A DNA stretch of 64,000 bases, taken from an uncultured Gammaproteobacteria bacterium (GTDB lineage: Bacteria; Patescibacteriota; Patescibacteriia; UBA11705; DATKZF01). The notes beneath the pieces were generated by a model. That model was not told the DNA's origin and ran no database searches. It worked only from the letters and a program-made list of their open reading frames with translations. Below, one piece after another: positions 16,041-60,246 of this stretch. The stretch covers positions 92,439 to 156,438 of the forward strand of contig CAYPKD010000003.1 in NCBI GenBank assembly GCA_964411255.1, given 5' to 3'. The position numbers were made by a program, and so were the translations under genes. How positions within the stretch are numbered: position 1 is the stretch's first letter; every line of letters starts with the position of its first letter.

Positions 16041-16080
16041 AAAACAGATCAACAGATCTGCAACAGATGAAACAGATAAT
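16041..16080 (-). promoter_or_regulatory. Conserved 40-nt ATCTGTT-heptamer element in the rnc 5' region (copy A)
   Basis: aaaaacagatcaacagatctgcaacagatgaaacagataat ends 7 nt upstream of the rnc ATG. A roughly 90% identical copy lies upstream of tig (60054-60096). Confidence 0.55.
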
Positions 16081-16121
16081 GCATTATCTGGAATATCTGT
16101 AGTAGGTCAATAGATCCGTAG

Positions 16122-16616
16122 TTACTTTTTCTTAGAGTCTTCGTTTTTTTTAGTTTCTTCCGCTTTTACTTTAATTTGTTCTTTATCTTCTGTTTTTATT
16201 ACTTCACCCATGTCTTTATAAATTGAACCTAAAACACCGTTAATAAATTTTCCAGATGATTCGCCACCAAAAGTTTTACCAATTTCTATGGCTTCATTAA
16301 TTGCTACTTTAGCAGGAACATCCTTGTCAAAAACTAATTCATATATGCCGATTCTAAGAATGTTTCGATCAATAGTCGTTATTTGTTCGATTGGCCATTC
16401 TGGGGCATATTTTACAATATGCTCATCAATTTTTTTTATTTTTTTGATTACGCCGTCAATAATTTTTTCAGTAAAGGATTTATCTTTAACCGTTGGAGCA
16501 AATTCTTTAAAATTGTAATCAATAAATTTAGGCAAATCTTTTGTGTTTTTGCCAAGAAAATCCCACTGAAATAATGTTTGCATTGCAATGGTCCTGGCAA
16601 GGTGTCTATTAGCCAT
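16122..16616 (-). CDS. nusB: Transcription antitermination factor NusB
   Basis: 164 aa with the [20 protein letters not shown] NusB N-terminus. Confidence 0.85.
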
Positions 16617-16746
16617 AAATTGTTCATTTTTAGGTTCAAATATAAAATGGACTTATCAATATTTTACTATATTTTATTGGTTTTGGCAAGCCCTGAGTTT
16701 AAAAATAAAAAATCCCTTTATTTTTAGGGATTTTTTATAAACGTGA

Positions 16747-17409
16747 TTATTGAGTCATTAAACTTAAGGTAAATCTAATTTGATCATCCTGACTAAAGAT
16801 AATAATGGTAGCATTTTTATTGTCTTTAGAATAGCTTAATGAAGTGGTTTCATCTGTTTCATATTCTGAAATCTTTTTCCAGCCAGAGTCTTCCATTTCA
16901 TTAAGATAAAAGCCTTTAACATCATCTTTTGACTTGTTCGTAGTAAAAGTACCGCCAATGCCAAGTTCTGCCATTTCATTTAAAGTAACCATTTTTGCTG
17001 AATCCATAATAGGTATTGCGTTTTTTAATTCTTTTGGTACATCAATACCTGATTCATCTGTTTTGACTTTAAATTCTCCTTCCTGCCCTTCTTCATCTGT
17101 AAATTTCATTTTGAATGTTCCTTCTTCATCACCATCAATATCAAATTCTATTTCACCTTCCCCATCTTCGCCTTTTATCTTTATGGTGTCTCCGCTTTTA
17201 TCAATATCAATATTTGTTCCGGTTTGAGATTCAATCATTCTTTCTAAAGCAGTTTCTGTTACATTATTGACTACAGCCCGATAAATAAAATAGCCGATCA
17301 AGGCAACAATAATAATAGCCACAATTACAACCACAATAATAATGGTTGAATTTGATTTTTTAGGAGAGCTTGGGCTTGGGGGTGGTGTTGGTTGTGTTTG
17401 ATTTTCCAT
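16747..17409 (-). CDS. Hypothetical membrane-anchored acidic protein
   Basis: 220 aa with a Pro-rich N-terminus, one TM helix and a D/E-rich ectodomain. Confidence 0.45.
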   Translation of the reverse strand: MENQTQPTPPPSPSSPKKSNSTIIIVVVIVAIIIVALIGYFIYRAVVNNVTETALERMIESQTGTNIDIDKSGDTIKIKGEDGEGEIEFDIDGDEEGTFKMKFTDEEGQEGEFKVKTDESGIDVPKELKNAIPIMDSAKMVTLNEMAELGIGGTFTTNKSKDDVKGFYLNEMEDSGWKKISEYETDETTSLSYSKDNKNATIIIFSQDDQIRFTLSLMTQ

Positions 17410-17474
17410 AAATAAATTCTTTATGAGTAAGTTGTGTTTAGTATAGTCAATTTTAATAGTTTGTAAATATTATA

Positions 17475-18185
17475 CTATTTTGCCATTGCTTTTTTCTTCA
17501 ATGATACGGGCATTTTTTCAATTGCATAACGTAAAGCTGTTCTGGGCATTTTGTGTTTTCGTAGCATTACAAAATTAAAAATATCTTTTTGGTAATGGTT
17601 GGCAGCTTCCTTTAACATCCAGCCATACCCTTTTTGAACTAAGTCATCCTTGTCAAGCAAAAGAATGTCAGCAATTTGAAAAACATCTTTTAAATATTTT
17701 TTGTTTTGTTTTATCAGCGGAATCATTATCACTGCTGATGCCCGACGAACCCAGCGATTTTTTGACTTGGTCCATTGCTTTATGATTTTTAAATATTCCG
17801 GATATTTTATGATTAAATGCCCAAAGGCATTGGTACAAAAAATATCACACATTGCCCAATTGGTAACATATTTTTTCAGCCATTGCTCAAAAATTTTATA
17901 ATCTTTTTTTTGATATTGCTTTGTAAGTCTTTTTGCCCAATCAAAAGCAATCATTGCTTCTTCATTATAATTTGATTGTAAAAGCTTTTCGCACAGGGTA
18001 AAGACTCGATGTTTTGGAAGTAATTTGATGGCCGCAAAATTGCCTGCGGCAATTTTGCGGACGATCGGAGCCCTCACTCCGTAAAGTTTTATTGGTTCAT
18101 TAAAAAAATTTTGTGAGCCTTTTTTATATTTAGGGTCAATGTTGGTTTTAAGCTCTTTTCTGATTTTAATAATTGTATTGTTCAT
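17475..18185 (-). CDS. DNA alkylation repair enzyme (AlkD-like HEAT-repeat glycosylase family)
   Basis: 236 aa. The overall pattern (WVRRASAVIMIPLIK, GYGWMLKEAANHY) matches the DNA_alkylation family. Confidence 0.65.
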   Translation of the reverse strand: MNNTIIKIRKELKTNIDPKYKKGSQNFFNEPIKLYGVRAPIVRKIAAGNFAAIKLLPKHRVFTLCEKLLQSNYNEEAMIAFDWAKRLTKQYQKKDYKIFEQWLKKYVTNWAMCDIFCTNAFGHLIIKYPEYLKIIKQWTKSKNRWVRRASAVIMIPLIKQNKKYLKDVFQIADILLLDKDDLVQKGYGWMLKEAANHYQKDIFNFVMLRKHKMPRTALRYAIEKMPVSLKKKAMAK

Positions 18186-18739
18186 AGCTTTTGATTTTCT
18201 AAAATCATATTTGGATAACCGCTTGATTTATATTCTGATTGATTAAGCTGTATCCCCAGTTCTTTTGCGAAGTCAAAGCAGGCTTGTCTGGTTTTTTTTG
18301 CGTTTCCAAAGTCTTTTTTTGCCTCTATTTCAATAAAGTTTCCGAGTTCTTTAATATTATCTAATACAATTTCAAAGTTTTCTACTTGGAAATATTTTCT
18401 GGTCTTGGTTACAGTTACTTTTAATTCATGCCCGAGCTGTTTTAGGAATTCCTCTGCGGTTTTGGGATCCTCAATATTAAATTCATATTCATCGGATGTT
18501 AACAGAACAGTTTTATTATCGTATTTTGCATCAGTGTAATTTAAGTGATGTTTATCATCTTCATACCTGATTCGTAAATATTTTGATACAGGTTTTATTT
18601 CAAACCAGTCTTGATTTTGTGGAACAAAATATTTATCAGTTTGTTTTCGTTCTTTAATAAATCGACCTTTTTCAAGAATTTTTTTCTCAATCTCATCTGG
18701 ATTGGAAATTTTAATTTTAATCTCTATTTCTTGATTCAT
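18182..18739 (-). CDS. CYTH-domain protein (CyaB/thiamine-triphosphatase-like)
   Basis: 185 aa with an N-terminal EIEIKIKI (ExExK) motif and a C-terminal IEIEAK motif. Confidence 0.7.
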   Translation of the reverse strand: MNQEIEIKIKISNPDEIEKKILEKGRFIKERKQTDKYFVPQNQDWFEIKPVSKYLRIRYEDDKHHLNYTDAKYDNKTVLLTSDEYEFNIEDPKTAEEFLKQLGHELKVTVTKTRKYFQVENFEIVLDNIKELGNFIEIEAKKDFGNAKKTRQACFDFAKELGIQLNQSEYKSSGYPNMILENQKL

Positions 18740-18782
18740 ATGTTTATATTGTAAAAGAGAGTTAAGATTTACTCAAGTCTTT

Positions 18783-20231
18783 TTGTTTTTAATGTTATTT
18801 ATGACTTTGACAAACATTGGATATTATGATAAATTTGAAATCACAATCAAAGGAAAAAACCATATAGCAACATTAACCATAAAAAAATACTTAGTTAAGC
18901 TGTTTTTAGGGATTTGCGATAAATTAGCTGTTTTTGGTAAATATATGAAAAAAGGCTTGATATATATTTCAAGACCTTTTGTGCGCGCAGGCAAATTCAT
19001 ATTCAAGTTTGTAATATTATCATTTTACAAGCTTTATTTATTTTTAAAGAAAAGGCTTCAGGTTTTTTATTTACCAGCTAAAAGCCGGGTGTTTTCATTT
19101 TTTTCAAAAAAATATTTAATCCATTTTGCAATAATAATCATTTCTTTTTTGGTTGTGGTGAACAGTATTAGTGCCAAAGAAATACGGGATGAGGATTTTG
19201 GCGAGCAGACCATAATTTATGCCATGTATAATGAAAAAACTCTGGGCGCTATCGAGGAAGTGGTTGTTAAAGACAGCCAGACAAAGATCTTAAGCTATCT
19301 GGACAAATCAGCGGTTTCCAGCAAGCCAACAATAGTTCCTGACAATAAAACTGAAGATGTGACAGAAGATCAAATCGCTGATAGCCTGGCAGCTGTTACT
19401 CAAGGGGGCGCTACTTTGGTAAAGCCAAATATTACTGAAACCAAAATTGCCAAAAGACCAAGAGAAGAAATTATTTCTTACGCAGTTAAAGAAGGCGATA
19501 CTTTAAGCATGATTGCTGAACAATTTGGCGTTTCGACCACTACTATTTTGTGGGAGAATAATTTATCAGAGAACAGCACTATTAAACCTGGTGATACTTT
19601 AAGCATTTTGCCAATAACCGGTCTGACTCATACTGTAAAATCAGGCGATGCTCTTAGCAAGATTGCTACTCGTTATGATGTTGAGACAGATAAAATTATT
19701 GAATTTAATAAATTAGCTAATGCAGAAGATATTCAGGAAGATCAGATTTTAGTCGTTCCTGGAGGTACAATGCCGATTGCCATTGCAAAAAAGACGACTT
19801 ATACCCGAAGTAATGTTAGTATTGCTCCAATTAAAAATTTAGTTGCTCCGCCAGGTGCGCCAACCATCCCAAGCGGTAAAATGGTTTGGCCAACTAATGG
19901 TCACAGAATAACGCAATATTATAGTTGGCGGCATAAAGGTTTAGACATCGACGGTGATTATAGCTCTCCGCTTTATGCAGCAGAAGCTGGAACTGTGGTT
20001 AAGGCTGGCTGGGGTACTGGTTATGGTAATGTAATTTATATTAATCATGGAAACGGCGTACAGACGCGTTATGCTCACATGAGTAAGTTTTTTGTATCAA
20101 ACGGGCAGCGAGTCTCTAAGGGACAGACTTTGGGCATGATGGGATCAACTGGCTGGTCAACTGGTACTCATATTCACTTTGAGGTCAGAATTAATGGTAC
20201 GCCAATGAATCCGTTGAGTTATATTAGATAA
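18783..20231 (+). CDS. LysM-domain M23 family peptidoglycan endopeptidase
   Basis: Two LysM repeats (GDTLSMIAEQFGVS.., GDALSKIATRYDVE..) and C-terminal M23 motifs HKGLDIDG and GTHIHFEV. The start is uncertain and may be the internal MKKGLIYI near 18946 ahead of a signal/TM segment. Confidence 0.8.
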   Translation: MFLMLFMTLTNIGYYDKFEITIKGKNHIATLTIKKYLVKLFLGICDKLAVFGKYMKKGLIYISRPFVRAGKFIFKFVILSFYKLYLFLKKRLQVFYLPAKSRVFSFFSKKYLIHFAIIIISFLVVVNSISAKEIRDEDFGEQTIIYAMYNEKTLGAIEEVVVKDSQTKILSYLDKSAVSSKPTIVPDNKTEDVTEDQIADSLAAVTQGGATLVKPNITETKIAKRPREEIISYAVKEGDTLSMIAEQFGVSTTTILWENNLSENSTIKPGDTLSILPITGLTHTVKSGDALSKIATRYDVETDKIIEFNKLANAEDIQEDQILVVPGGTMPIAIAKKTTYTRSNVSIAPIKNLVAPPGAPTIPSGKMVWPTNGHRITQYYSWRHKGLDIDGDYSSPLYAAEAGTVVKAGWGTGYGNVIYINHGNGVQTRYAHMSKFFVSNGQRVSKGQTLGMMGSTGWSTGTHIHFEVRINGTPMNPLSYIR

Positions 20232-20302
20232 AAAAAGTAAAAATTAAAAAGCTGGCAAAGTGCTGGTTTTTTTGATTCAATGAATTAAGGTTTATTGCTT
20301 AT

Positions 20303-20330
20303 TGACTTTTTGGATATTATATGATATAAT
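20303..20330 (+). promoter_or_regulatory. Sigma-70-like promoter for the GC-rich island ORF
   Basis: -35 TTGACT (20303-20308), 16-nt spacer, -10 TATAAT (20325-20330). Confidence 0.5.
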
Positions 20331-20334
20331 AAAA

Positions 20335-20426
20335 TACTAGTGAAAGTCGCTAGTATTTAATTAATTGCGTTGCGTCTAGACAGCTTAGTCCTGTCGCATG
20401 GACGCACAGACACAAGGAGGTTCGTC
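20335..20426 (+). promoter_or_regulatory. Structured GC-rich 5' UTR with two hairpins, ending in SD AAGGAGG
   Basis: Hairpin 1 is atactag-tgaaagtcg-ctagtat. The second structure is nested: tgcgtc..gacag-cttagtc-ctgtc..gacgca. SD AAGGAGG sits 6 nt before the ATG at 20427. Confidence 0.5.
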
Positions 20427-21146
20427 ATGACACGCCAAAAAGGAATGTGTCGCCCTGACGAATGGGAGCTCAAGCTCCGAAGGCAGTGTGACGAGTTGAT
20501 TCGTCGTTCAATGCGAGGCAGTGCAACATTTGGCTGGGAGGAAACTTCCGAGCGATTGCAGCGGTTGATTGCCCCACCTAGGAGGCCAACAGCTGAGGAA
20601 TTGTCCAAACTGGCTTCTCTGCGGCTTGCTCAGATGGATCGGTTCTTCAGTGAAATTCTGAAACTGGATATTGAAATTCCTGATCCGTCTGCTTCTGGTC
20701 GTCAGATCCGGCGGTACCAGCGTGAAGGCTGGGAACTTTTTTGCCGGCCAATTGACCATCTCAGTTTCATGAAGGCTCTTTGGGCTCGCTTCGAGAGCAT
20801 TAAACCCGGTTATGAGATGGAAGAACCGTTTTGTCATCGGATCAAGTGGGCTGATTTTACCAAACCATATTGGTTTTGGTATCGGACATTTGATCCGCAT
20901 GGGGATGCTGGACCAAAGCAGCTTCGCGAGATAGGCGGAAAGGAACGTGACCCACACTTGGAAGAGTACAAGATCGCCTATCATTACCAAGCCCTGAAAG
21001 GCAAGGAGATGCATTTGGCAAGCACAAACCTTTTGACATTTATTGCCATTGAGGGCGGATTCAATCGCATGGAAGCAACTGGCCACAGGATTTGTCAGCA
21101 TCCGCAGTCGATTGATTCTGAAAGAATTACCCAGCTGACTTCTTAG
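20427..21146 (+). CDS. Hypothetical protein encoded in a GC-rich, codon-atypical island (239 aa)
   Basis: About 52-55% GC versus about 30% in the flanks. Uses CTG/CGG/CAG codons where the host prefers TTA/AGA/CAA. Strong SD and ATG. No family recognised (Trp/Arg-rich). Confidence 0.55.
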   Translation: MTRQKGMCRPDEWELKLRRQCDELIRRSMRGSATFGWEETSERLQRLIAPPRRPTAEELSKLASLRLAQMDRFFSEILKLDIEIPDPSASGRQIRRYQREGWELFCRPIDHLSFMKALWARFESIKPGYEMEEPFCHRIKWADFTKPYWFWYRTFDPHGDAGPKQLREIGGKERDPHLEEYKIAYHYQALKGKEMHLASTNLLTFIAIEGGFNRMEATGHRICQHPQSIDSERITQLTS

Positions 21147-21157
21147 ACTAATCTTTG

Positions 21158-21190
21158 CCCCGCATTGCATTACAATGCGGGTATTTTATT
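21158..21190 (+). terminator. Strong intrinsic terminator after the island ORF
   Basis: ccccgcattg-cat-tacaatgcgggg followed by tattttattttt. Confidence 0.7.
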
Positions 21191-21309
21191 TTTAAAATTT
21201 AAAAACCACGGCCCTTATTTTACTAGATTCCCGATCGAGGTCAGGAATGACGTAATGGGCAGCGGTCTTATAATAGTCGTTATAATCAATAGATTACATG
21301 ATCTATGAT

Positions 21310-22824: not shown

Positions 22825-22962
22825 ATTTTGATAGTGCGACGAGCAAGACAAGTTTTCGGATGCTTGTGGCACTTGTCGCATCAGTCTTGCTGGTCGTACT
22901 GGTTATATCAATTTATCATTTACCAGTGAAATTAGCAAATAAAAAAAATCCTGATTATTGAA

Positions 22963-23842: not shown

Positions 23843-23903
23843 AGCCAACCTCCTTTGGTATGGGGATTGATTATTATATCATCAATAAATTTATTTGTCA
23901 ACA

Positions 23904-24587: not shown

Positions 24588-24589
24588 TT

Positions 24590-27739: not shown

Positions 27740-28948
27740 CTAGTGTATACAAATCGCTATTCTGTCTGTTGATCTATTGATTAGAATATTTTCGAAAATG
27801 AATCGTGATGGGTCATTAATGTAAATGATATTATTTTGGCCATTTTTGTTTAGTGTTGTCAAGCCACATTTTTCATATTTGATTTGATCTGAAAAAGATA
27901 GTGTATGATCAATATTTGATAATTGGATAAAATTTTGATCATAAAGCCTTAAATAATATTTTTCATTTTGGTGGGAAATTGAAAGGCTACCATTTTCATT
28001 TTCTTGCCAATTATATACTGTCCTGTCAGCAATTATTTGAGTTGAGATTGAACCATCTACCAGCCGTTTTGTCTGCTTTTTGGGGTATTTGTAAGCTAAA
28101 TGATCAATTATGCTATTTTTTATTGTATTTTCTGCTGTTTTTGGCGCTAAAACCAGCCAATTATCTTCATCATTTATCAATAAATCAATACAGGTATTAG
28201 TATTTGCTAGAAAGGGAATTTTTGTGAGATTATTGTTGCTTGTTGATAAATTGTTAATATAATACTGATAATTTGAAAAATCAGGAATTTGTATATTATT
28301 TTTACAATTATTTGGGTTTTTTAGCTGTTTTGCGCTTAATTTCGTAAAATCATTTTCAATTTGTATTTTCCAAAAGGTCTCTTCATCAAGAATCAGCATA
28401 TTTTCATTAAAATATGGCAGATCAGAATAATCTTTAATATAAATGTTTGCCTTTGAAAAATCAAAGCGTTTTTTTGTTCTATATGTATGATTGTTTGATA
28501 ATGGCTGATTTTCATCAATTACTGTCTTTACTATACTCACATTTTCTGTTGATTCAATTGCATAGCTATTATATTTCAATGATTTTGAGAAAATATTAAA
28601 ATCTGTTGGTTTGAAAATAAAAATCCATTGCTTTTCCGCCTGAATAATTGCGAATTCTGAAGAATTCATCAATTTTTCCTTAAAATTATCAGGAAAATTT
28701 TTATTTTCTGATGCAGATTCAATTATTTTGTCTAGGTTAGCACTTTCTTGTTGAAAAATTTTCTTTATTTTCCAATGGCTATATACATTTACATCTTCAT
28801 TAACAAAATCATCAATTGAATCAAAATGATAATTGAATAAAAAGAGGATAAAAAGAAAAATTCCTCCTAAAATCATAAGTAAAAATATAAGCAGAGGAAT
28901 TTTTCTTCTTTGGTGAGTTGCGTTATCTTTTATATTTAGCTCGATCAT
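27740..28948 (-). CDS. Hypothetical membrane-anchored protein (Asn-rich)
   Basis: 402 aa with an N-terminal TM helix. Its start overlaps the pnp stop by 26 nt. Confidence 0.45.
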   Translation of the reverse strand: MIELNIKDNATHQRRKIPLLIFLLMILGGIFLFILFLFNYHFDSIDDFVNEDVNVYSHWKIKKIFQQESANLDKIIESASENKNFPDNFKEKLMNSSEFAIIQAEKQWIFIFKPTDFNIFSKSLKYNSYAIESTENVSIVKTVIDENQPLSNNHTYRTKKRFDFSKANIYIKDYSDLPYFNENMLILDEETFWKIQIENDFTKLSAKQLKNPNNCKNNIQIPDFSNYQYYINNLSTSNNNLTKIPFLANTNTCIDLLINDEDNWLVLAPKTAENTIKNSIIDHLAYKYPKKQTKRLVDGSISTQIIADRTVYNWQENENGSLSISHQNEKYYLRLYDQNFIQLSNIDHTLSFSDQIKYEKCGLTTLNKNGQNNIIYINDPSRFIFENILINRSTDRIAICIH

Positions 28949-31130
28949 CCTTTTTGGAATCTTTATTAATTGCTTTAATAGATAAATTCACTCTTCCCTG
29001 GTCATCAATACTGATTACTTTCACCTTTACTGGCTTACCAACGCTAAGCACGTCAGATACTTTATTTACCCGGTATGGAGCAATTTCAGATATGTGAACT
29101 AGGCCTTCTTGGTTAGGTAGAATTTCAACCATTGCTCCAAAATCAAATAGTCTAGATACTTTACCTTCAAAGATTTCACCAACTTTTGCTTCTCTGGTTA
29201 AACTTTCAACCCATTCTGTCGCTTCTTTTGCCCCAGCCTGATCGGTTGAGGTTATTAGTACTAATCCATCAGGCTCGATATCAATACTGACACCGGTTTT
29301 ATCAATAATTTCATTAATCATTTTTCCTCCAGGACCGATAACATCCCTTATTTTATCTGGATTAATATTCATTGAAATAATTCTTGGCGCATGTGGTGAA
29401 AGTTCTGACCGCGGTTCTTTTATAATATTAGTTATTGAATCAAGAATTTCCAGGCGGGCGGTTTTTGCTTGATTTAAAGTATCTTTTACAATATCCAAAC
29501 TTAACCCACTGGTTTTTGTGTCCATTTGAATACAGGTGATCCCCTCTTTCGTGCCTGTAATTTTGAAATCCATTCCACCATCACTGTCTTCTAAGTCCTG
29601 CAGATCTGTTAAAATTTTGTAATTGCCTGAATTATCTGATGCAAGGCCCATGGCAATTCCAGCTACTGGTTTTGAAATAGGAATACCCGCGTCCATCATT
29701 GCTAAAGTTGAACCGCAGGTAGCTGCCATTGAGCTTGATCCGTTTGATCCTAAAACTTCAGATACCACTCTTATTGTATATGGAAATTTTTCTTTATCTG
29801 GTAAAAGAGACTTGATTGCTTTTTCAGCAATTGAGCCATGCCCAATATCTCTTCGGCCAGGGCCTCTTAATGGACCGGTTTCACCCACTGAATATGGAGG
29901 AAAATTGTAATGATGCATGAATCTTTTTTTGCCACTCTCTTCCATTCCCTCAAGTGTTTGCTCATCACCAGGAGAACCAAGGGTGACAACGGACAATACC
30001 TGCGTTTCTCCGCGTTGAAATAGCCCGCTGCCGTGCGTTCTAGGCAATAAACCAACTTCTACATCAAGTTTCCTGATTTCATCGATTTTTCGGCCATCAA
30101 CTCTAATACCAGTCTCTATGATCGTTTTGGTTATTTCATCTTCAATAAACTTTATAAAGAATTGTTTAATTAATTTATTTCTTTTTTCTTTGCCAATTTG
30201 TTTTTCAACTAAAAATTCTTCCAGTACATCTTGCAGTTTGCTAATCATTTCTTTCCTTGCCTTTTTGCTGTCTTTTGGTACGTTAAAAACATATTCATCC
30301 AGTTTTGGACGAAGAAATTCTTTACTTTCCTCAATTAATTTCTCAAACTCTTCCTGAGTGATTTTTTCTTCTTTTGTTAATTCATCCTCTTCGCTCATTA
30401 TTCGCGTTGATTGTTTTTCTTTACCTACTTTTTCTCTGATTTGATCAAGGAATTCCAGCTGCTTTTTCGTTTGCTTAATTGCAAATTCAAATGCTTTATA
30501 TACAGTTTCTTCATCTGCTTCTTTTGCTTCAGCGTCAATCATAATCACTTTATCTTTAGTAGTTCCTACAACCAGGTCAAGTATTGATTTTTCCCGAGCT
30601 TCATGTGATCCGTTAATTACCCACTCGCCATTGATTTGGCCGATTCTTATTCCGGCAACTGGACCAGCCCAAGGAATATCTGAAATATGAAGAGCGCATG
30701 AAGCTGCTATTAATGCGATTACATCAGGATCATTCTCTCCGTCAGCTGACAGAACTGTTAAAATGACCTGTACATCATTTCTTGTTGAATGATCAAAAAG
30801 CGGCCGCAAGGCGCGATCAATCATTCGAGAATTCAAAATTGCTTCATCAGAGGGGCGGCCTTCTCTTTTTATAAATCTAGAGCCTTTAATTTTTCCTGCC
30901 GCATACAATTTTTCTTCATAGTCTACCATAAGTGGGAAAAAATCTATGCCTTCACGGGGTTCTTTTCCCATAGTGGCTGTAGCTAAAATAACAATCCCTC
31001 CATAATGCACTACACAGCTGGCATTTGCTTGATGTGCTAATTTTCCAGTCTCTACAATCAATTGTTCTCCATTTAGCTGCATTTCAAATCTTTGAACTTT
31101 GTCTTTTTGTTCTTTTTTCTTAAAAAACAT
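28923..31130 (-). CDS. pnp: Polynucleotide phosphorylase
   Basis: 735 aa with two RNase PH domains plus KH and S1 (ETGKLAHQANASCVV..., GEIFEGKVSRLFDFGAMVEI). An alternative start at MQLNG (31082) is possible. Confidence 0.9.
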   Translation of the reverse strand: MFFKKKEQKDKVQRFEMQLNGEQLIVETGKLAHQANASCVVHYGGIVILATATMGKEPREGIDFFPLMVDYEEKLYAAGKIKGSRFIKREGRPSDEAILNSRMIDRALRPLFDHSTRNDVQVILTVLSADGENDPDVIALIAASCALHISDIPWAGPVAGIRIGQINGEWVINGSHEAREKSILDLVVGTTKDKVIMIDAEAKEADEETVYKAFEFAIKQTKKQLEFLDQIREKVGKEKQSTRIMSEEDELTKEEKITQEEFEKLIEESKEFLRPKLDEYVFNVPKDSKKARKEMISKLQDVLEEFLVEKQIGKEKRNKLIKQFFIKFIEDEITKTIIETGIRVDGRKIDEIRKLDVEVGLLPRTHGSGLFQRGETQVLSVVTLGSPGDEQTLEGMEESGKKRFMHHYNFPPYSVGETGPLRGPGRRDIGHGSIAEKAIKSLLPDKEKFPYTIRVVSEVLGSNGSSSMAATCGSTLAMMDAGIPISKPVAGIAMGLASDNSGNYKILTDLQDLEDSDGGMDFKITGTKEGITCIQMDTKTSGLSLDIVKDTLNQAKTARLEILDSITNIIKEPRSELSPHAPRIISMNINPDKIRDVIGPGGKMINEIIDKTGVSIDIEPDGLVLITSTDQAGAKEATEWVESLTREAKVGEIFEGKVSRLFDFGAMVEILPNQEGLVHISEIAPYRVNKVSDVLSVGKPVKVKVISIDDQGRVNLSIKAINKDSKKDDRAKYKR

Positions 31131-31144
31131 ACATGTTTTTTTGA

Positions 31145-31204
31145 CCGTCAGACTTTAGATTTCAAGAATGTTATAATTCTTCATAAAATCTACTTGTCTG
31201 ACGG
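31145..31204 (-). promoter_or_regulatory. Long imperfect hairpin in the pnp 5' leader (candidate RNase III autoregulatory stem)
   Basis: ccgtcagac (31145-31153) pairs with gtctgacgg (31196-31204), enclosing the inner stems agattt/aaatct and caagaat/attcttc. Confidence 0.4.
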
Positions 31205-31230
31205 ACAAAGTTTATTTATAAATTTAATAA

Positions 31231-53309: not shown

Positions 53310-53513
53310 TTAGATGCTGGGGTTTATGTAATCATCATCATAGGTGACAGAATATCCAGACTTGAAAAAGTTTCTGGCGCAATTGTAGGCTTTTGTGAAA
53401 GAAAAAGTAAAGAGCAATGTGAAAATGAAAATGATCGTTGCAAATACAAATTGAATTGATAAGACAATGACGAAAAGGAACAAACCTATCGTTAGAAAAG
53501 CTGCAAGATCCAT
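53310..53513 (-). CDS. Small two-TM membrane protein
   Basis: 67 aa. SD AGGGAGGT lies 5 nt before the ATG. Preferred over the overlapping 53338..53595 frame. Confidence 0.45.
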   Translation of the reverse strand: MDLAAFLTIGLFLFVIVLSIQFVFATIIFIFTLLFTFSFTKAYNCARNFFKSGYSVTYDDDYINPSI

Positions 53514-53603
53514 CCTTTACCTCCCTTTGCGATTTGTTTGGGTTCGTTATACTTAATTTATCAATTTGACTTATTTTGTCAATAAAACCGCTCAATGAGC
53601 GGC

Positions 53604-54374
53604 TTATTTATTTTGAATTGTTTTTATTAATGCTTGGTGGACTTTTTTGTTTGAAGCGAGCATGTCTTTGCTCGTTAATGTCCATTCATTATCCTTAAAG
53701 TCTGTCACTTTGCCCCCAGCTTCTCTGACTAATAATATCCCAGCTGCCACATCCCAGGAATGTGCATTTGGAATTATCATAGAGTCAGTTCTGCCAGCTG
53801 CAACATAACCCAGTTCAAGTGAGGCAGAACCAAGCTGGCGCATAAAAGCGGCTCTTAGCTTGTAATAACTATAAAGCTTTATTGCTCTTTTCCATGAAGA
53901 AATGCCAGTGCCATGGCAATATGTTAAAAGTGCTTTGTCCAGTTGATTTCGATTTGATACTTTTAGTTTTTTATTATTAAGCTTTGCGCCCTTGCCAAGC
54001 TCTGCTACATAAAGTTCATCTAATGCTGGTGCATAGATAATACCAAGCTGGATTTCTCCTTTATAAACTAAAGCAGCTGAAACTGCAAAAAGGGGATTGT
54101 GCATGAAAAAATTGGTAGTACCATCTAATGGATCTATTACCCAGAGATAATCAGACTTATTTTTTGAGCGGCCGCTTTCTTCTGATAAAATGGTATGGTC
54201 TGGGAAGTTTTTTTTAATTGATTTTGTAATAATTTTATCTGCGACCATGTCTGCAGAAGTGACTAATTGATGTTTTGATTTATATTGAGCAGTGAATTTA
54301 CCTGAATTATAAATTTTAAGCAATTCTGACCCTGCTTTTTTTACTGCTTGTAAGGCAATTGTTTTTGGATTCAT
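53604..54374 (-). CDS. suhB: Inositol monophosphatase family protein (SuhB-like)
   Basis: WVIDPLDGTTNF metal-binding motif and overall IMPase fold length. Confidence 0.8.
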   Translation of the reverse strand: MNPKTIALQAVKKAGSELLKIYNSGKFTAQYKSKHQLVTSADMVADKIITKSIKKNFPDHTILSEESGRSKNKSDYLWVIDPLDGTTNFFMHNPLFAVSAALVYKGEIQLGIIYAPALDELYVAELGKGAKLNNKKLKVSNRNQLDKALLTYCHGTGISSWKRAIKLYSYYKLRAAFMRQLGSASLELGYVAAGRTDSMIIPNAHSWDVAAGILLVREAGGKVTDFKDNEWTLTSKDMLASNKKVHQALIKTIQNK

Positions 54375-54378
54375 ATTT

Positions 54379-54840
54379 TTATAGATCTTCTAATAATTGT
54401 AGCTCTAATTTTTTTGTCTTTGTATCTAATGTTGCAAACACAGCCTTATAACCCATTCCAGCTAAGGATCCTGGATTAGCTAAATACGTATTATTAAATT
54501 TTTCAATCCATGGCTTATGCGAGTGGCCGTAAAATGCAAAATCTAAATTGTTTTCTTTAGTCATTAGACTGGCTACTATTTCTTTGTGGTGCGCTAATGC
54601 TATTTTTAAAGAATCAATTTCAATTATTTTCTTTTTATCCAAAGTGAACATGTCAGCATTGCCCCTCACGGCGTGAATATCTCCGTTAAAGCTGTCTTGG
54701 ATATAGTTAAATGTTTCTAAAGACGTGACATCACCACAGTGAAGTAGCGTTTTTATTTTATTTTTTTTGCAATAATTTGAAAATTTTTCCAAATTAGGAA
54801 TATTGTCATGGGAATCTGAGATAATCGCAATTTTTGACAT
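54379..54840 (-). CDS. Metallophosphoesterase (YfcE/MJ0936 family)
   Basis: IAIISDSHDN, LLHCGDV and GHSHKP motifs. Confidence 0.75.
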   Translation of the reverse strand: MSKIAIISDSHDNIPNLEKFSNYCKKNKIKTLLHCGDVTSLETFNYIQDSFNGDIHAVRGNADMFTLDKKKIIEIDSLKIALAHHKEIVASLMTKENNLDFAFYGHSHKPWIEKFNNTYLANPGSLAGMGYKAVFATLDTKTKKLELQLLEDL

Positions 54841-54917
54841 ATTTATGACAAAAGAACATAAGAACTCAAGAACTAAAGAACAAAATCATGTTCATAAGTT
54901 CATGCGTTTATTAGTTC

Positions 54918-55757
54918 TTAAGTTTTTCTTAACTTATTTAATATTTCAAGATTTTTTTTATCTGATTTATCATTTTCTTTTGGTGTTTCAATGATAAAAT
55001 TAATTTCCTGCAGTTTTGGATGTGTGATCAAGGTTTTGAATCCGTTTATTCCAATAAATCCTTTTCCAATATGTTCATGTCGATCTTTGTGAGAGCCCAG
55101 TTCAACTCTGCTATCATTAATATGCAGTAGTTTTAGCTTATCAAGGCCAATTGTTTTATTAAATTCTATTAAAGTTTTATTAACTGAGGTTTTTGTTCGC
55201 AAATCATAGCCAGACGCAAAAGCATGAGCAGTATCAAAGCATATGCCAACATCTTTATTTTGTATTTTATTTAGGATAAACGCAATTTCCTCAAATGTAT
55301 CACCCATAATTTTGCCAGCACCTGCTGACATTTCAATTAAAAATTTGGTTGTGCCAGTATATCCATCAAAAATTCGGTCAATACTGCGAACTGTTTCCTT
55401 GAGCGCATCTTTTTCAGTTCTTTCACCAGCACTTCCTAAATGAGTCATGATATATTTTACACCAAGCTGTGTACCTCTTTCTAATTCTTCCCGGCAGGCA
55501 TTGATTGACCCATGCTTTATGCGATTATTTGTTGAAGCTAGGTTAATATAATACGGAGTATGAATGTAATAATCAGTTAACTTATGCTTTTTGCAATTAG
55601 CTTTAAATTCTGTAATCTCTTTTTCAGTTAAAGCTTTTAGTCCTCCGCCCCGTGGTGATCTTGAAAAGAATTGAAAACATTCACAGCCTTGTTTTGCTGC
55701 GTTAAGCGGGGCGTTTTGGATGCCGCCAGCGATTGAGACATGGGCGCCTAGTTTCAT
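54918..55757 (-). CDS. nfo: Endonuclease IV (AP endonuclease family 2)
   Basis: MKLGAHVSIAGG N-terminus and conserved metal-binding His/Asp/Glu positions along a TIM barrel of about 280 aa. Confidence 0.9.
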   Translation of the reverse strand: MKLGAHVSIAGGIQNAPLNAAKQGCECFQFFSRSPRGGGLKALTEKEITEFKANCKKHKLTDYYIHTPYYINLASTNNRIKHGSINACREELERGTQLGVKYIMTHLGSAGERTEKDALKETVRSIDRIFDGYTGTTKFLIEMSAGAGKIMGDTFEEIAFILNKIQNKDVGICFDTAHAFASGYDLRTKTSVNKTLIEFNKTIGLDKLKLLHINDSRVELGSHKDRHEHIGKGFIGINGFKTLITHPKLQEINFIIETPKENDKSDKKNLEILNKLRKT

Positions 55758-55811
55758 AAATTACAAATATTGAATCATTAAATTCGTTAAATGCATTAAA
55801 GTCGTTAAATA

Positions 55812-56240
55812 TTACAAATGATTACAGATATTCTGTACATCGCCTTGCAAAACAATTGGCTTCATTAAATTTATTTCAATAGCATATCTGATATCTTCTT
55901 CAGTCGGTGGGTCAAATAGCAAAAAGATTTTTTTATTAAAATGATGAGCAATGCCCATTTCCATTAAAGTTGAGCCGCCAACATAACCAGCTATTTCATT
56001 TTTTGGATAATTCAGTACCAGTATTGCATCTCTGGGTACTATTAAATCAAAATGAGCTTTTATAATATCATCATAGGTTTTAAAATGTTCAGGATCACTG
56101 GCAAAATCACGTTCTGGATTTTCAGCACACATTTTTGTATCATAAGGTACAACAACTTCATGTCCTAGGTCTTGAAGAATTTTTTGAGCCCCCAGCATTT
56201 GTTGGGCAAATTTCATTGAGCCGATTATGACGATTTTCAT
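55812..56240 (-). CDS. Rossmann-like small protein, possibly nucleoside 2-deoxyribosyltransferase-like
   Basis: 142 aa. MKIVIIGSMKF...GYVGGSTLMEMGIAHHFNKKIFLL. Weak family assignment. Confidence 0.35.
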   Translation of the reverse strand: MKIVIIGSMKFAQQMLGAQKILQDLGHEVVVPYDTKMCAENPERDFASDPEHFKTYDDIIKAHFDLIVPRDAILVLNYPKNEIAGYVGGSTLMEMGIAHHFNKKIFLLFDPPTEEDIRYAIEINLMKPIVLQGDVQNICNHL

Positions 56241-56383
56241 ATGGTTACGAATGTTAAATCATTAAATACATTAAATTCGTTAAAGACATTAAAATTATTA
56301 CAAATGATTGCGAATTAGATTATCTTTGGATTCAGGATAATTACATTATAACAAAAGCAGCTCAACAGAGCCTGTTTAATAAT

Positions 56384-57106
56384 TTATTTTTTTTGTATTC
56401 CAATTTGCTCCAGGAATTTAATTCTGGCAGGTTCAATTTTAATAGCTCCTTTTATATCACCAGGAATTGAATATATTAAAGAATCTTTTGAAATATATAG
56501 CTCAAGTTCAGAAGGATATTTTCGATCGTTATTTATTACAATATCCATATTCACTAATAAAGGCTCTGCTTCAAATTTTTGTACTGTGCTTATAAACTCT
56601 GGTGTAAGTTTAGTATCTGTTAATTTACGTAAAAATTCTTTTTTATCACGAAGAAGACGAGCCGCAAATCTTTTATCAATAGGTACTGTGATATATGTTC
56701 GTATATCTGATTTTTGACCGACAACCTTCTCCTCAATTGTTTGAACACCTTCAACTAAAATGACCTTTGCAGGGGTAAGATTATCAACAGATTTACCTTG
56801 CTGCAATTTGTTAATGGTCATATGCAATTTTTTTAAATCTAGTTCATTGCTGTTAGGAAAATAAAAATTATCAGTACTCACAACTGTTATATCTATTTTA
56901 TCTTCTGCTATTTTCTTACGTAGTTCGTTTGCCAGTGTTGTTTTCCCTGATCCTGTTTTGCCAGACAAGGTGACAAGAATACTTTTCTTTTCATTAAGGC
57001 AGGTCTTTATCTTGTCCTTAAGTAAAGCAATCCCTTCATCAAAATTCTCAGCGCGTTTGTAGGATTGCACATTAGCGTCCTCTTGTTTTGGTCGTTCTAA
57101 ATCCAT
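56384..57106 (-). CDS. P-loop kinase of the uridine kinase/phosphoribulokinase family
   Basis: LSGKTGSGKTTLANEL Walker A followed by VVSTDNFYFP. Confidence 0.55.
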   Translation of the reverse strand: MDLERPKQEDANVQSYKRAENFDEGIALLKDKIKTCLNEKKSILVTLSGKTGSGKTTLANELRKKIAEDKIDITVVSTDNFYFPNSNELDLKKLHMTINKLQQGKSVDNLTPAKVILVEGVQTIEEKVVGQKSDIRTYITVPIDKRFAARLLRDKKEFLRKLTDTKLTPEFISTVQKFEAEPLLVNMDIVINNDRKYPSELELYISKDSLIYSIPGDIKGAIKIEPARIKFLEQIGIQKK

Positions 57107-57244
57107 ATTTATACAATGAAAAATAAATTATCCTGATTCTATTATAACAAAAGCAGCTTTTGAGAGCTAATTTTTAAATTTGACTTTTTATATATCTGCC
57201 ATTAAGCTTATTTAACACAAGGAACCTGGAAAAGGAGGTGTTCG

Positions 57245-57556
57245 ATGTCAGAACAAGAACTTTTACACAAAAAAAGACAAGCCTTTGCGGCAGCTTATAT
57301 GCATATTTTAGAAATTTTAAAAAAAGAGATGGAAAAGGACTCTGATTTATGTCATCCAGGCATATTTGATTTAGATTTTATGGTATTTAGTGGATCTGTT
57401 GAATATGAAAGAATGAGATTGGGTATGAATACTCATATTGGATTGACTATTGTGTGTCAATTAATCAGGCATTGTGATGATATTCATTTTCATAAATGCC
57501 CTACTGATTTAGAATGTTGCTGTAAAAAAGAACAGCGTGACCAAACAAAGATATAA
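57245..57556 (+). CDS. Small Cys/His-rich hypothetical protein (103 aa)
   Basis: SD AAAGGAGGTG. C-terminal HCDDIHFHKCPTDLECCCKK. Confidence 0.45.
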   Translation: MSEQELLHKKRQAFAAAYMHILEILKKEMEKDSDLCHPGIFDLDFMVFSGSVEYERMRLGMNTHIGLTIVCQLIRHCDDIHFHKCPTDLECCCKKEQRDQTKI

Positions 57557-57589
57557 ATTGGTTTTAACTTAGGCAAGGAGGGAATAGTC

Positions 57590-57928
57590 ATGTGTTTGCC
57601 AATGACCTGCTGCGAAAGAGAAACAATGATAATTTTTGGTGAATGGTTATATTTTGCAAAATGGAATATTCGAGGCACTGGTAGAATTTTGTGTCAGGAA
57701 GTGATTGATAGAATTCCAACAGAAAAAAGGAGTAATCAATCACAAAGAGATAGTGGAGGAATTGATGTTCATTTAGCAATAGGTGAGAGGGGCAATTTTA
57801 GAGGATGTTATGATCATCCGATTGATGTTGATGAATTTCTTTTTTCAATTTCAGAGCAAACAGCAATGAAATATTTGCCAAAACTTTTTCAGGACATGAT
57901 TGAAAGCAGGGAAAAGCATGCAGCTTAA
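57590..57928 (+). CDS. Small Cys-containing hypothetical protein (112 aa)
   Basis: SD AAGGAGGG. N-terminal MCLPMTCCE. Terminator hairpin aaacgact-taaaat-agtcgtttttt after the stop. Confidence 0.45.
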   Translation: MCLPMTCCERETMIIFGEWLYFAKWNIRGTGRILCQEVIDRIPTEKRSNQSQRDSGGIDVHLAIGERGNFRGCYDHPIDVDEFLFSISEQTAMKYLPKLFQDMIESREKHAA

Positions 57929-58045
57929 ATAAACGACTTAAAATAGTCGTTTTTTGAATTATAAAACAGCTAGGATTGACAATTTTATAAACATTTGATA
58001 TAATTAAATGTTCGTTTGTGATTGTTTTATTCAATAGGAGGAATC

Positions 58046-58393
58046 ATGTCTGAGAAAAAAAAGAAGAGCCATTGGCCTCTGCTAATTGCCATTATTGCAA
58101 CACTATTTACTTTTGTTGGGATAGCGCTGTTTTTCATATCAAAATCAAATCAACCTGATTATTCTGCAAATCCGATTGAATGCATAAGTACAGTGTCTGT
58201 TCAGACAGGCATAAAAAATATGGACGAACTTTATATCAATAATAATAGCATAGGAGACATTCATTATATTAAAGGTTCAAATGGTTGCTTTGCCTTGTTG
58301 GTTTACAGCTATAATAGAAATAGAATTGATTTCACTTCAATCCCATGCGACCAAGTGCAGACATTTGCCAATACATGTGAGAAAGCCCAGTGA
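58046..58393 (+). CDS. Membrane-anchored hypothetical protein
   Basis: SD AGGAGGAATC precedes ATG 58046. N-terminal TM helix. Terminator cccag..ctggg plus T tract after the stop. Confidence 0.45.
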   Translation: MSEKKKKSHWPLLIAIIATLFTFVGIALFFISKSNQPDYSANPIECISTVSVQTGIKNMDELYINNNSIGDIHYIKGSNGCFALLVYSYNRNRIDFTSIPCDQVQTFANTCEKAQ

Positions 58394-58732
58394 GTAATAA
58401 CTTGCTGGGTTTTTAATTTTAAAAAGCTCAGATGAGCTTCTTTTGTGAAAATTTTACTGCCCTTTGCGTCATTCCCGCGCAGGCGGGAATCTATGAATTG
58501 TATTGTATGAAGCAAAGCAGTAAAATTTTATGCCACTGCAATAAATTGATGAGATCCCCGATCAGGTCGGGGATGACGACCGGGCTGCGGTATCTATTAA
58601 TTATTCGTTTATTTATCAGATTCAATTTTTTTATTATCAGTCTTTTCTGGCTGATGCGGTCTGGAACCCAAAACAGAAGCCATCACCATTGCCCAGGCAA
58701 TAATAATGCTTTTGAAGAATTTAAGTATTTTT

Positions 58733-60040
58733 TTAAGAAATCGTGACATTATTTTTTAGAAACTCAATTACTTTTTTATTAGCAATTAAATTTTCAAAAT
58801 ATCTGCGCGCGTTTTCAGTCTTAATATTTTTTTCAAGCTGATCAAGTTGATTTTGATATTGAGGCTGAAGTTTATATGATGCTAAGGTTTTTTCCTGTTC
58901 TTCATCAATTTCTTTTTTTGTTGCCTTTAGTTCTTCTTTTTTAGCGATCGCCCTGATAGAAAGAGCTGTTTTTACGCGCTTTAGGGCATCAGCTGAAAAT
59001 TCCAAACGCATTTCTGCTTCTGATTTTTTTAGGTGATTTAAGTATTGCTGAAAATCCAATCCTTGTCTGGTTACATTATCTTCTAATTCATGAAGCATTT
59101 TGTGAGTTTCCTCATCAACCAGAATATCAGGAATTTCTTCAAACGTAGCTTTTTCAATAAGTTGTTCAATGATTTCAAATTCTTGCTTTTGAACTGCCTT
59201 TGCCTTTTTTTCATCCTCTAAATTTTTCTTAATTTGATTTTTTAAAGCTTCAACGGTCGGTACGCCCATGCCTTTGGCAAATTCTTCTGTTATTTCTGGC
59301 AAATCAATTTGATAAACAGCTAAAAGTTTGACTTTAAATTTTGCTAATTTGCCAGCAATTGTTTTTTGATGATAGTCTTTTGGGAATTCCAGATCAAATT
59401 CTTTTTCTTCATCTTTTTTCATGCCAATAATTTGTTCCTCAAAACCTGGAATCATTTTTTTATCCCCAATTACTAATGGATATTTTTTTGCCTCTCCGCC
59501 TTCAATCGGTACTTTATCTACACAAGTATTAAAATCAACCTCAACCCGATCGCGCTCTTTTACTTCTCGATCTACTAAGGTTTCTTTGGCTCGCATTTTT
59601 TTCAAGTCAGCTAAAACTTTTTCAATTTCAGAGTCTTCAATTTTAATTTCCTCAAGTTTTTTTGCCTTGATTTTTTTATACTCTGGCAATTCTACGCTAG
59701 GTAAAAGTGATACAGTTGCTTTGAATATAAAAGGATTTTTTGGAGCCATTTTTACAATATCAATTTTAGGCTGTTCAACTGTTTCAAAATTTTCCTGTTC
59801 AATTGCTTTATAATAATTTTCTGCAATCATGTCTTGTGACGCATTTTGATAAAGAGCCATTTCTCCAAATTGCCTCACTACAGTATCAAAAGGAGCTTTG
59901 CCTGGGCGAAAGCCTTTGATTGGTTTATCTTCAGATAGTCTTTCTGCAGCTTTTTCCAAATATGGCTTTACTTCCTTCTCAGACAGCTCAATAATTAATT
60001 CAATTTGTTTTTTAGGTAGTTCTTTTTTTGTAATATTCAT
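58733..60040 (-). CDS. tig: Trigger factor
   Basis: Ribosome-binding N-domain with GFRPGKAPFD (the FRxGxxP motif), a PPIase-like middle and a C-terminal domain. Start placed at the internal MNITKK. Confidence 0.85.
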   Translation of the reverse strand: MNITKKELPKKQIELIIELSEKEVKPYLEKAAERLSEDKPIKGFRPGKAPFDTVVRQFGEMALYQNASQDMIAENYYKAIEQENFETVEQPKIDIVKMAPKNPFIFKATVSLLPSVELPEYKKIKAKKLEEIKIEDSEIEKVLADLKKMRAKETLVDREVKERDRVEVDFNTCVDKVPIEGGEAKKYPLVIGDKKMIPGFEEQIIGMKKDEEKEFDLEFPKDYHQKTIAGKLAKFKVKLLAVYQIDLPEITEEFAKGMGVPTVEALKNQIKKNLEDEKKAKAVQKQEFEIIEQLIEKATFEEIPDILVDEETHKMLHELEDNVTRQGLDFQQYLNHLKKSEAEMRLEFSADALKRVKTALSIRAIAKKEELKATKKEIDEEQEKTLASYKLQPQYQNQLDQLEKNIKTENARRYFENLIANKKVIEFLKNNVTIS

Positions 60041-60053
60041 ATTAATGTTTGGG

Positions 60054-60096
60054 AAAAACAGATCAACGGATGGCAATAGATGAAACAGATATTAGA
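60054..60096 (-). promoter_or_regulatory. Conserved 40-nt ATCTGTT-heptamer element in the tig 5' region (copy B)
   Basis: aaaaacagatcaacggatggcaatagatgaaacagatattag. A partial inverted copy lies at 60117-60140. Confidence 0.55.
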
Positions 60097-60246
60097 TATT
60101 CTGATTTTCCATTGTATCCGTTTCAGATCTGTTGATCCGTGTATTAAAAAAATAATCATTTATCCAGATTATCATATATTAAGAAAGTAGTCAAGTAGAC
60201 TGGTAGAATAGTAGAACAATAAATCTTTATTTGAAATTAGCCATGA

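Follow-up and report, generated by a model that had tools for sequence, protein, structure and literature searches.

The window, by which is meant the entire stretch of 64,000 nucleotides that was analysed, carries rnc on the minus strand at 15341-16033. The encoded RNase III of 230 amino acids looks intact, with both the nuclease domain and the dsRBD present (Pfam PF00636, PF14622 and PF00035). Directly upstream and co-directional is nusB (16122-16616, minus strand), which has a promoter-like site ahead of it at 16689-16661 (minus strand), and the two genes probably form an operon, closed by a strong hairpin that follows rnc at about 15290-15330. The spacer between the two genes is filled by a foldback. 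Its 5' arm (ACGGATC...CAGATAATGC; 16081-16119, minus strand) begins 2 nt past the nusB stop codon, and its 3' arm (element A; 16040-16082, minus strand) comprises four ATCTGTT units and then U5, stopping 6 nt short of the rnc ATG at 16033. The preliminary description had placed the start of element A at 16041; the sequence is present, but the run aaaaacagat occupies 16040-16049 and the element begins at 16040. Positioned within the 5' arm, at 16083-16110 on the minus strand, is a species-specific promoter-like TTGACC-16-GATAAT (a 10/12 match), which, if used, would give a transcript devoid of the 5' arm.

The second copy precedes tig, the gene for trigger factor (435 amino acids; 58733-60040, minus strand). 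Element B, the 3' arm (60054-60092, minus strand), likewise has U5 behind it and is separated by 13 nt from the tig ATG at 60040. The 5' arm is located at 60109-60140 (minus strand), and the whole hairpin extends from 60058 to 60140. Note that the tig reading frame, as listed from 60076, has been extended to a TTG codon; the orthologues from four other species display the same M(N/K/E)I residues at their N-termini. Upstream of the hairpin lies a block (60146-60194, minus strand) consisting of a promoter-like TTGACT-15-GATAAT, a small hairpin and a T-run, which is conserved in five species and was missed by the consensus scan because its spacer is 15 nt in length. Judged from its sequence, this block may be the tig promoter, in which case the hairpin would form part of the tig 5' UTR. 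A third copy occupies the ymdB-hup spacer (62195-62294, plus strand). Its five TACRAGAT units give way to four ATCTYGTA units, it forms about 35 pairs (MFE -35.9, z -7.8), and 18 nt lie between its end and the hup ATG at 62313.

When the rnc 40-mer was aligned locally to the remainder of the window, the tig element (60054-60091) was recovered with 34 identities in 38 positions and one 1-nt gap, close to the identity of about 90% originally proposed. The alignment score was 29, as compared to 15.3 ± 1.1 (maximum 19) for 100 composition-preserving shuffles, and the next real match in the window scored 17. The heptamer AACAGAT is found 24 times in the window versus 11.7 ± 3.1 expected, and it clusters only at the rnc and tig sites. 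At rnc there are four copies (16043-16077), and at tig two exact copies plus two with one mismatch (60057-60090).

The preliminary description correctly noted an inverted copy of the element at tig (60117-60140) and suggested that it could form a long hairpin. A corresponding inverted copy at rnc had been missed, and thus both loci are foldbacks of approximately 80 nt. Indeed, the feature is the whole hairpin at each locus rather than a 40-nt repeat; the 40-nt element is simply its 3' half. Each locus consists of a 76-83-nt imperfect palindrome of TACRGAT/ATCYGTW units with terminal inverted repeats, in which the arms are 72-78% complementary (72% for 16044-16082 and 16081-16119 at rnc). The hairpins end 10 nt (rnc) and 17 nt (tig) before the ATG codons. 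The rnc stem, 16044-16119, contains 26-27 pairs and, as in rncO-type leaders, is a stem of about 20 bp or more directly upstream of rnc, with its transcription suggested by the layout of the nusB-rnc operon. The RNA folding z-scores for rnc and tig are -3.3 and -5.0 in the mRNA sense and -5.2 and -4.2 for the other strand, with the opposite strand folding slightly better in energy (-29.1 versus -25.6 for rnc and -33.0 versus -30.8 for tig). Long hairpins are common in the spacers of this genome, and in a ranking of 100-nt windows those at rnc and tig come only about 14th and 20th, an observation that counts against reading them as RNase III substrates.

The three copies in these 64 kb belong to a small, clade-specific family within one lineage of the Patescibacteria. 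In the relatives it is encountered in the nusB-rnc spacer (six species), variably before tig, and before hup and a deoxynucleoside-kinase gene (dNK). Few close relatives were obtained from a metagenome scan with tig. The foldbacks measure 76-100 nt, the termini TAC...GTA recur across copies, and the conserved unit, derived from 42 units across loci and species, is ACRGAT with a single degenerate purine position. The units are irregularly spaced at 7, 8, 10 or 11 nt, with gaps of 0-4 nt. In the hup copy of relative L107 the TACAGAT and TACRAGAT forms are mixed. The earlier proposal of a cis element shared by the leaders of both genes, and not randomly scattered, holds for the entire family: within 283 kb of clade DNA every copy ends 4-18 nt upstream of a start codon. 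This proximity is maintained even in long spacers, namely those of tig (206 nt), L098 dNK (>200 nt), L100 (150 nt) and L107 (306 nt). Strong copies number eight in 238 kb of clade DNA, with none elsewhere. A degenerate 25-nt pattern searched against a genome contig collection that excluded the source genome gave six single matches in unrelated phyla, approximately the number expected by chance.

The rnc copy is conserved in the relatives. A hairpin is present in the nusB-rnc spacer at all nine further loci compared, which represent eight relative species (L094, L090/91, L092/93, L095/96, L097, L098/99, L103 and L105), and it ends 5-10 nt before the rnc ATG in each case. The stem is long in seven of these species and short in L105. 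In the more distant relatives L098 and L103 the sequence of the hairpin is unrelated and lacks the units; evidently a hairpin is retained even as its sequence is replaced. In the seven family copies, the 22 outer pairs are 88.8% paired, and changes on both sides are observed in 8 of the 22. This level was reached by 2 of 500 shuffles, and slid controls gave 0-3. The fourfold degenerate sites of rnc are saturated between species (18-44% identity versus 30% for random sequence), and the rnc hairpins nevertheless score 61-85 bits against the family model.

The situation at tig is different. Whereas the rnc site is always filled, the tig site is occupied in three of five species (the window, L100 and L107), in very different forms, and is empty in L004 and L102. 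In the closest relative, L004, whose tig is 88% identical and whose flanks are conserved, there is no element. These differences, together with the membership of hup and dNK, are at odds with a conserved coupling of RNase III and trigger factor expression, as had been put forward on the basis of the two original loci.

We favor an interpretation, to which we assign a probability of about 0.5, in which these hairpins are transcribed as dsRNA leaders and cut by RNase III, whereby rnc would be autoregulated and tig and hup brought under the same control. Most likely this would be a type of control that is already known, though built here in an unusual way from repeats. A dsRNA target for RNase III fits the anatomy of the loci better than the protein- or sRNA-binding site or enhancer that had been suggested. 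Transcription with the gene, cutting by RNase III and the sign of the effect are inferred elements of the following scheme. The transcript would fold into a stem providing at least 22 bp of dsRNA, a substrate for RNase III. At rnc the enzyme would exert feedback on the mRNA that encodes it, much as at the rnc leader of E. coli, and at tig and hup it would process the mRNA. Cleavage might release the U-rich 3' arm, which would then serve as an unstructured leader before a start codon without a Shine-Dalgarno (SD) sequence, or it might trigger decay.

There are precedents for such cleavage. Hairpins in the rnc and pnp 5' UTRs of E. coli are cut by RNase III (PMC5371410), and in S. aureus the cleavage by RNase III of a long hairpin in the cspA 5' UTR leads to greater stability and translation (PMC3386247). 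In the window, too, pnp (28923-31130) is preceded by a long hairpin (31140-31209, z -7.15), such that rnc and pnp, the two genes concerned in E. coli, both carry start-proximal long hairpins here. The likeness to E. coli rncO (RF00552) and the pnp leader lies in the long stem immediately ahead of rnc, with an independent one ahead of pnp, in a stem length sufficient for RNase III and in a position that related species share. It does not extend to sequence or structural homology: cmscan (E<=10, 15200-16800) gave only chance matches and none to rncO, and no Rfam match at E<=10 to the element loci was found other than chance matches resembling plant miRNA precursors. In addition, the hairpin here is located between nusB and rnc rather than at the 5' end of an rnc-era operon, its arms are composed of tandem 7-8-nt units, and members of its sequence family are found before tig and hup as well. 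The early region of phage T7 contains a family of mutually related hairpins (R1-R5) between cistrons, just upstream of gene starts, that are processed by RNase III. Unlike the hairpins described here, these are phage-borne rather than chromosomal, bubble-containing stems that receive single cuts and have no tandem units.

Several features fit less comfortably with cleavage by RNase III. RNase III needs little sequence, and thus the conserved ACRGAT unit is left unexplained. Mismatches over 12 hairpins are 37 of the G·U type and 29 of the A·C type (p=0.39), that is, without significant strand bias, whereas a purely sense-strand RNA element should favor G·U. The good promoter-like site in the rnc 5' arm also speaks against cleavage by RNase III, and the presence or absence of the element at tig and its association with different genes in different species resemble mobility.

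It is conceivable, although unlikely, that the family is a selfish, non-autonomous palindrome of the MITE, Correia or foldback-like kind, which spreads at the DNA level and is tolerated in leaders, with any RNA effect being a side-effect. The whole element is indeed an inverted repeat with TAC...GTA termini, its mismatches favor neither strand, and the tig site is filled or empty depending on the species. In addition, the L107 tig copy contains a nested GC-rich insert, and L098 displays a canonical copy at dNK and an unrelated hairpin at rnc. Weighing against this are the low density of copies and their invariable proximity to start codons. Furthermore, neutral junk would not have survived at rnc, where the orthologous copy is kept despite saturated synonymous sites. 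The flanks of the empty and filled tig sites have diverged too strongly for a target-site duplication to be read clearly, and no transposase was seen in the listed flanks, apart from a serine recombinase beside rnc in L095 only.

Correia elements are in fact both selfish and active as RNA, and accordingly a selfish origin does not exclude cleavage by RNase III. The Correia repeat-enclosed elements (CREE) of Neisseria can create promoters, and transcribed copies are bound by RNase III, which either cleaves or protects them; a neighboring gene is therefore regulated differently depending on whether a copy is present (PMC2649163). The likeness resides in a short palindromic intergenic repeat beside genes, in the variable occupancy at tig and in the promoter-like site of the rnc copy. 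The differences from CREE are a far lower copy number, no conserved core with an IHF site seen, no evident TA duplication, arms made of sub-repeats and an rnc copy that is orthologously conserved under constraint. REPs, by comparison, are 20-40 nt in length, occur in hundreds of copies mostly at the 3' ends of genes, and are tied to RAYT transposases. REPs and REPINs are similarly intergenic, imperfect palindromes that form hairpins, and some units in L090 and L094 contain GTAG. The present family differs from them in its few copies at 5' ends, in the lack of a conserved GTAG (GTTG in the window) and in that no RAYT was seen.

Two further proposals give the conserved unit itself a role. It is decidedly doubtful that the family constitutes a lineage-specific post-transcriptional regulon, in which a sequence-specific factor, beyond generic RNase III, would read UACRGAU/AUCYGUA and, in these largely SD-less Patescibacteria, determine through the start-proximal foldbacks how core genes such as rnc, tig and hup are translated or processed. 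Re-initiation might contribute, with the upstream stop codon and the AUG joined at the base of the stem across a 90-nt spacer, and the element would have been copied to new genes and rewired between species. Even less probable is an operator array on dsDNA, whereby a sequence-specific protein would bind the ACRGAT units in both orientations and co-regulate the transcription of rnc, tig, hup and others. The conservation of the unit amid saturated neutral divergence, the equivalence of the strands and the overlap with a promoter-proximal region would suit an operator. The irregular spacing, however, provides no helical phasing, the rnc hairpins of L098 and L103 persist without the recognition units, and the arms co-vary so as to keep pairing, which is not required of an operator. 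At tig, moreover, the array would lie downstream of the conserved promoter-like block, and no candidate regulator was found.

Both window copies end in GAUCUGUUUUU, and a terminator or attenuator might be imagined in which the hairpin and U5 halt transcription arriving from nusB or from the tig promoter or stabilize the 3' end of the upstream mRNA. The rnc and hup hairpins do fill the spacers behind co-directional genes, and the consensus scan scored a weak terminator-like sub-hairpin at rnc (16061-16044). Such a role is nonetheless very unlikely. The U-run at rnc is confined to the window species, being absent in every relative examined (L090, L092, L094, L095 and L097), and nothing terminator-like was scored at tig, where 107 nt separate the hairpin from the preceding stop codon and the promoter-like block comes before it. 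The clear terminators of this genome look different, with perfect 12-17-bp stems and A/T-run flanks near stop codons. Termination of the upstream gene was rejected as a family-wide explanation.

The original suggestion that the element, acting as an SD-independent enhancer or an sRNA- or protein-binding site, replaces an SD sequence does not stand. An SD-like motif is found at only 14 of 72 gene starts in the window, and with about 80% of the genes lacking one there is no SD to be replaced. The tig gene of L004 has neither element nor SD. That the (T)ATCTGTT repeats function single-stranded in such a capacity has, in our view, the slimmest chance of the readings weighed here. The 3' arm is U- and pyrimidine-rich, lies beside the AUG of genes in a mostly SD-less genome and would be plausible as an unstructured leader if the hairpin were cleaved or never formed, but it is paired with the upstream inverted copy at every locus, and the unit in the relatives, ATCCGTA, is less U-rich.

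A TIGR array, which comprises two alternating 8-12-nt repeats with 9-nt variable spacers in 5-15 units next to a tas (Nop-domain) gene (PMC12045711), was rejected on account of the single unit type, 7-11-nt spacing, one palindrome and housekeeping-gene flanks observed here. The count of GATC is neither depleted nor enriched (195 observed versus 197-199 expected), and a Dam-related reading was discarded. Resemblances to the Fur box, the LexA box and the IHF site presumably fail as well, in that the spacings or orientations do not fit.

To our knowledge, almost nothing is known of post-transcriptional control in the Candidate Phyla Radiation, most lineages of which are uncultured. If the family is selfish DNA instead, it would represent a compact, MITE-like element under constraint in a highly reduced genome. 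If the assignment of the hairpins as RNase III targets is true, feedback through RNase III leader hairpins reaches this radiation, and a simple evolutionary route would be revealed in which a repeat-built foldback was moved or duplicated from rnc to tig, hup and dNK. The family provides a concrete set of candidate RNase III substrates in organisms whose genes are mostly SD-less.

The two stretches preceding rnc (15341-16033, minus strand, with nusB directly upstream at 16122-16616, minus strand) and tig (58733-60040, minus strand, preceded by a Na/Ca-exchanger gene at 60247-61236, minus strand) are present as set out in the preliminary description, with the first of them starting at position 16040. 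They are identical at 34 of 38 positions with one gap, and their alignment score of 29 compares with 15.3 ± 1.1 in 100 shuffles (maximum 19) and with 17 for the next best real match to the rnc element. These two clusters alone account for the excess of the heptamer AACAGAT in the window. An inverted partial copy had been noted at tig only. It is indeed found there (arms 60058-60092 and 60109-60140), but the inverted-repeat search revealed that the rnc locus is likewise an imperfect palindrome (arms 16044-16082 and 16081-16119). Both loci fold as long hairpins, with fold z-scores of -3.3 to -5.2 on either strand, and both finish in a U5 run in the mRNA sense. A promoter-like TTGACC-16-GATAAT lies within the rnc copy. 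The element is genuine, and it is both longer and more widely distributed than originally reported. The G+C content of the window is 33%. The nearest named relatives of its tig and rnc proteins belong to Candidatus Kuenenbacteria, Falkowbacteria and other Patescibacteria, and the exact proteins are present on ENA and JGI metagenome contigs of ∼390 kb.

The nusB-rnc synteny is observed in every relative recovered. In the relatives designated L094, L090/91, L092/93 and L097 (paired handles denoting loci of one species), and more weakly in L095/96, the spacer is a family foldback of TACRGATC units that stops 5-9 nt before the rnc ATG; the rnc genes concerned are 77-84% identical to that of the window. 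Divergence from the window at the 4-fold degenerate sites of rnc has reached saturation in these relatives, with 18-44% identity versus a random expectation of 30%, and yet the rnc-site hairpins score 61-85 bits against the family covariance model. Over the 22 outer pairs, seven copies show 88.8% pairing; eight of these pairs display changes on both sides, a number matched by 2 of 500 shuffles and compared with 0-3 in slid controls. In L098/99 and L103, whose rnc genes are 71% and 75% identical, respectively, the spacer holds a hairpin of 20-28 bp of unrelated sequence, and in L105/106 a short G+C-rich stem only. In L105, a Buchananbacteria-like relative, it is the rpmF-nusB rather than the nusB-rnc spacer that carries a hairpin of AATCAAGMGAT units (9443-9509), which matches the family model weakly (E=0.24). 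A serine recombinase gene located immediately downstream of rnc in L095 (11051-12667) is absent from the otherwise identical L096 and is a strain-level insertion beside the locus.

The leaders of tig were compared in five species (the window, L004, L100, L102 and L107). Every one has a promoter-like TTGA(C/T)-N15-GATAAT, with a small hairpin and a T-run after it, and this conserved block preceding the hairpin suggests that the element sits inside the tig 5' UTR. In L004 and L102 the block runs straight on to the ATG. Of the tig relatives recovered, L004 is the nearest, at 88% identity and with the same gene upstream; its flanks are kept (GATTATTTTTTTA ... AACATTAATATG) with nothing between, thus representing an empty site. 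The block is followed in the window by an 83-nt hairpin, in L100 by a degenerate version built from TGCGGATC units (E=0.003 against the family model), and in L107 by a foldback of TTACAAAT and ATTTGTAA units split by a nested G+C-rich insert of ∼150 nt. That palindromic insert (9780-9940 of L107), in an AT-rich leader foldback, resembles an inserted element of a second type. Conservation in relatives, to which the preliminary description had looked, holds for the nusB-rnc copy, kept in family form in five species, but not for the tig site, empty in L004 and L102; judged from these sequences, the presence of the element at tig is evolutionarily unstable.

A search of 1.06 Mb for clusters of the generalized unit [TA]AC[AG]A?GAT and its complement, with ∼1 cluster expected in shuffles, returned only the rnc sites, the window tig site, hup spacers and a deoxynucleoside-kinase gene of L098, besides chance matches in unrelated phyla. 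One of the latter, in an Anaerolineales genome (L087, 1487-1700), repeats in tandem every 25 nt (AACGGATCAACGGATTGCTTCGCGA) and was rejected as unrelated. Between ymdB and hup in the window (62195-62294) lie five units and then four (z -7.8). L107 has a cluster of mixed TACAGAT and TACRAGAT units at the orthologous position, and that of L098 ends 5 nt before the kinase gene. In 283 kb the family model recovered three untrained copies and nothing else, namely those at the L098 kinase (E=4e-5), L107 hup (E=0.003) and L100 tig. The stem base lies 4-18 nt from an ATG in every copy found, including those in spacers of 150-300 nt; the start-codon proximity originally described, rather than scatter, is therefore a property of the family. 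An Rfam search with the rnc/tig element gave no family match.

Start-proximal hairpins of different units precede ymdB, a metallophosphoesterase gene and pnp. The pnp hairpin (31140-31209, minus strand; ∼25 bp, MFE -28.9, z -7.15) is unrelated in sequence to the rnc/tig family and stops 9 nt short of the pnp start codon (gene at 28923-31130; two RNase PH domains, KH and S1). The leader of the ymdB-like gene (61330-61388, plus strand; ATG at 61394) consists of GGCTGGT/AGCTTGT heptamers followed by inverted CTACAAGCTAGC and folds less strongly, into a hairpin likewise built of repeats (z -2.0). The hairpin at 54841-54917 (minus strand), ending 9 nt before the ATG of the metallophosphoesterase gene (54379-54840), has the architecture of the rnc/tig family with a different unit: ATGAAC-type units and then four GTTCTT units (z -4.5). 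TTTAACG/TTTAATG arrays, 82% alike (family D3 of the repeat search), lie at 55758-55811 and 56241-56300 (minus strand), directly before ATGs at 55757 and 56240. G+C-rich repeats adjoin tRNA genes at 5483-5801 and 14879-14904, in DNA otherwise of 33% G+C: a 41-nt sequence occurs three times in tandem (5588-5725), and a 26-nt one recurs at 5483, 5776 and 14879. A gathering-level Rfam match to HPnc0260 (13524-13653, plus strand; 60.5 bits versus a cut-off of 59) overlaps an opposite-strand tRNA gene (13618-13690) and is probably spurious.

On the basis of these comparisons, the element may be a leader segment of double-stranded RNA that RNase III acts upon, serving autoregulation at rnc and recruited secondarily at tig and hup, a reading to which we assign a probability of about one half. 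In Escherichia coli the 5' UTRs of both rnc and pnp contain hairpins that RNase III cuts (PMC5371410), and in Staphylococcus aureus the enzyme controls its own mRNA and cleaves a long cspA leader hairpin, increasing stability and translation (PMC3386247). As in E. coli, long stems directly precede rnc and pnp here, the latter in the position of the classical cleaved leader. Both this precedent and the fact that the rnc stem keeps its place and its pairing from species to species, including those in which its sequence has been replaced, argue for an RNase III target. The reading predicts no direction of effect. It leaves unexplained the conservation of the unit sequence itself, which RNase III does not require, the lack of sense-strand bias among mismatches (37 G·U-type versus 29 A·C-type, p=0.39), the occupation of different genes in different species, and the promoter-like site inside the window rnc copy.

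These same features keep alive a mobile palindrome of the Correia or MITE type and, less likely, a DNA operator array. In Neisseria the Correia-type palindrome is itself acted on by RNase III and can supply promoters (PMC2649163). A terminator, with the U5 runs of the window copies in mind, is contradicted by the relatives compared, all without a U-run after the hairpin; the obvious terminators of this genome are perfect 12-17-bp stems near stop codons. The earlier proposal that the element replaces a Shine-Dalgarno sequence, as an enhancer, is at odds with the scarcity of such motifs in the window, at 14 of the 72 gene starts as approximately placed, and with the L004 tig gene, which lacks both. 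TATAAT occurs ∼12 nt before the ATG at several window gene starts, suggesting very short leaders, and a strong AAGGAGGTG stands in the hairpin's stead at hup in distant relatives without it. A TIGR array does not fit.

Both an RNase III leader hairpin and a palindromic intergenic repeat are already-known kinds of element. As an RNase III target, the stem in the rnc leader would allow rnc to be autoregulated, and the same double-stranded element would have been co-opted in the leaders of tig and hup.
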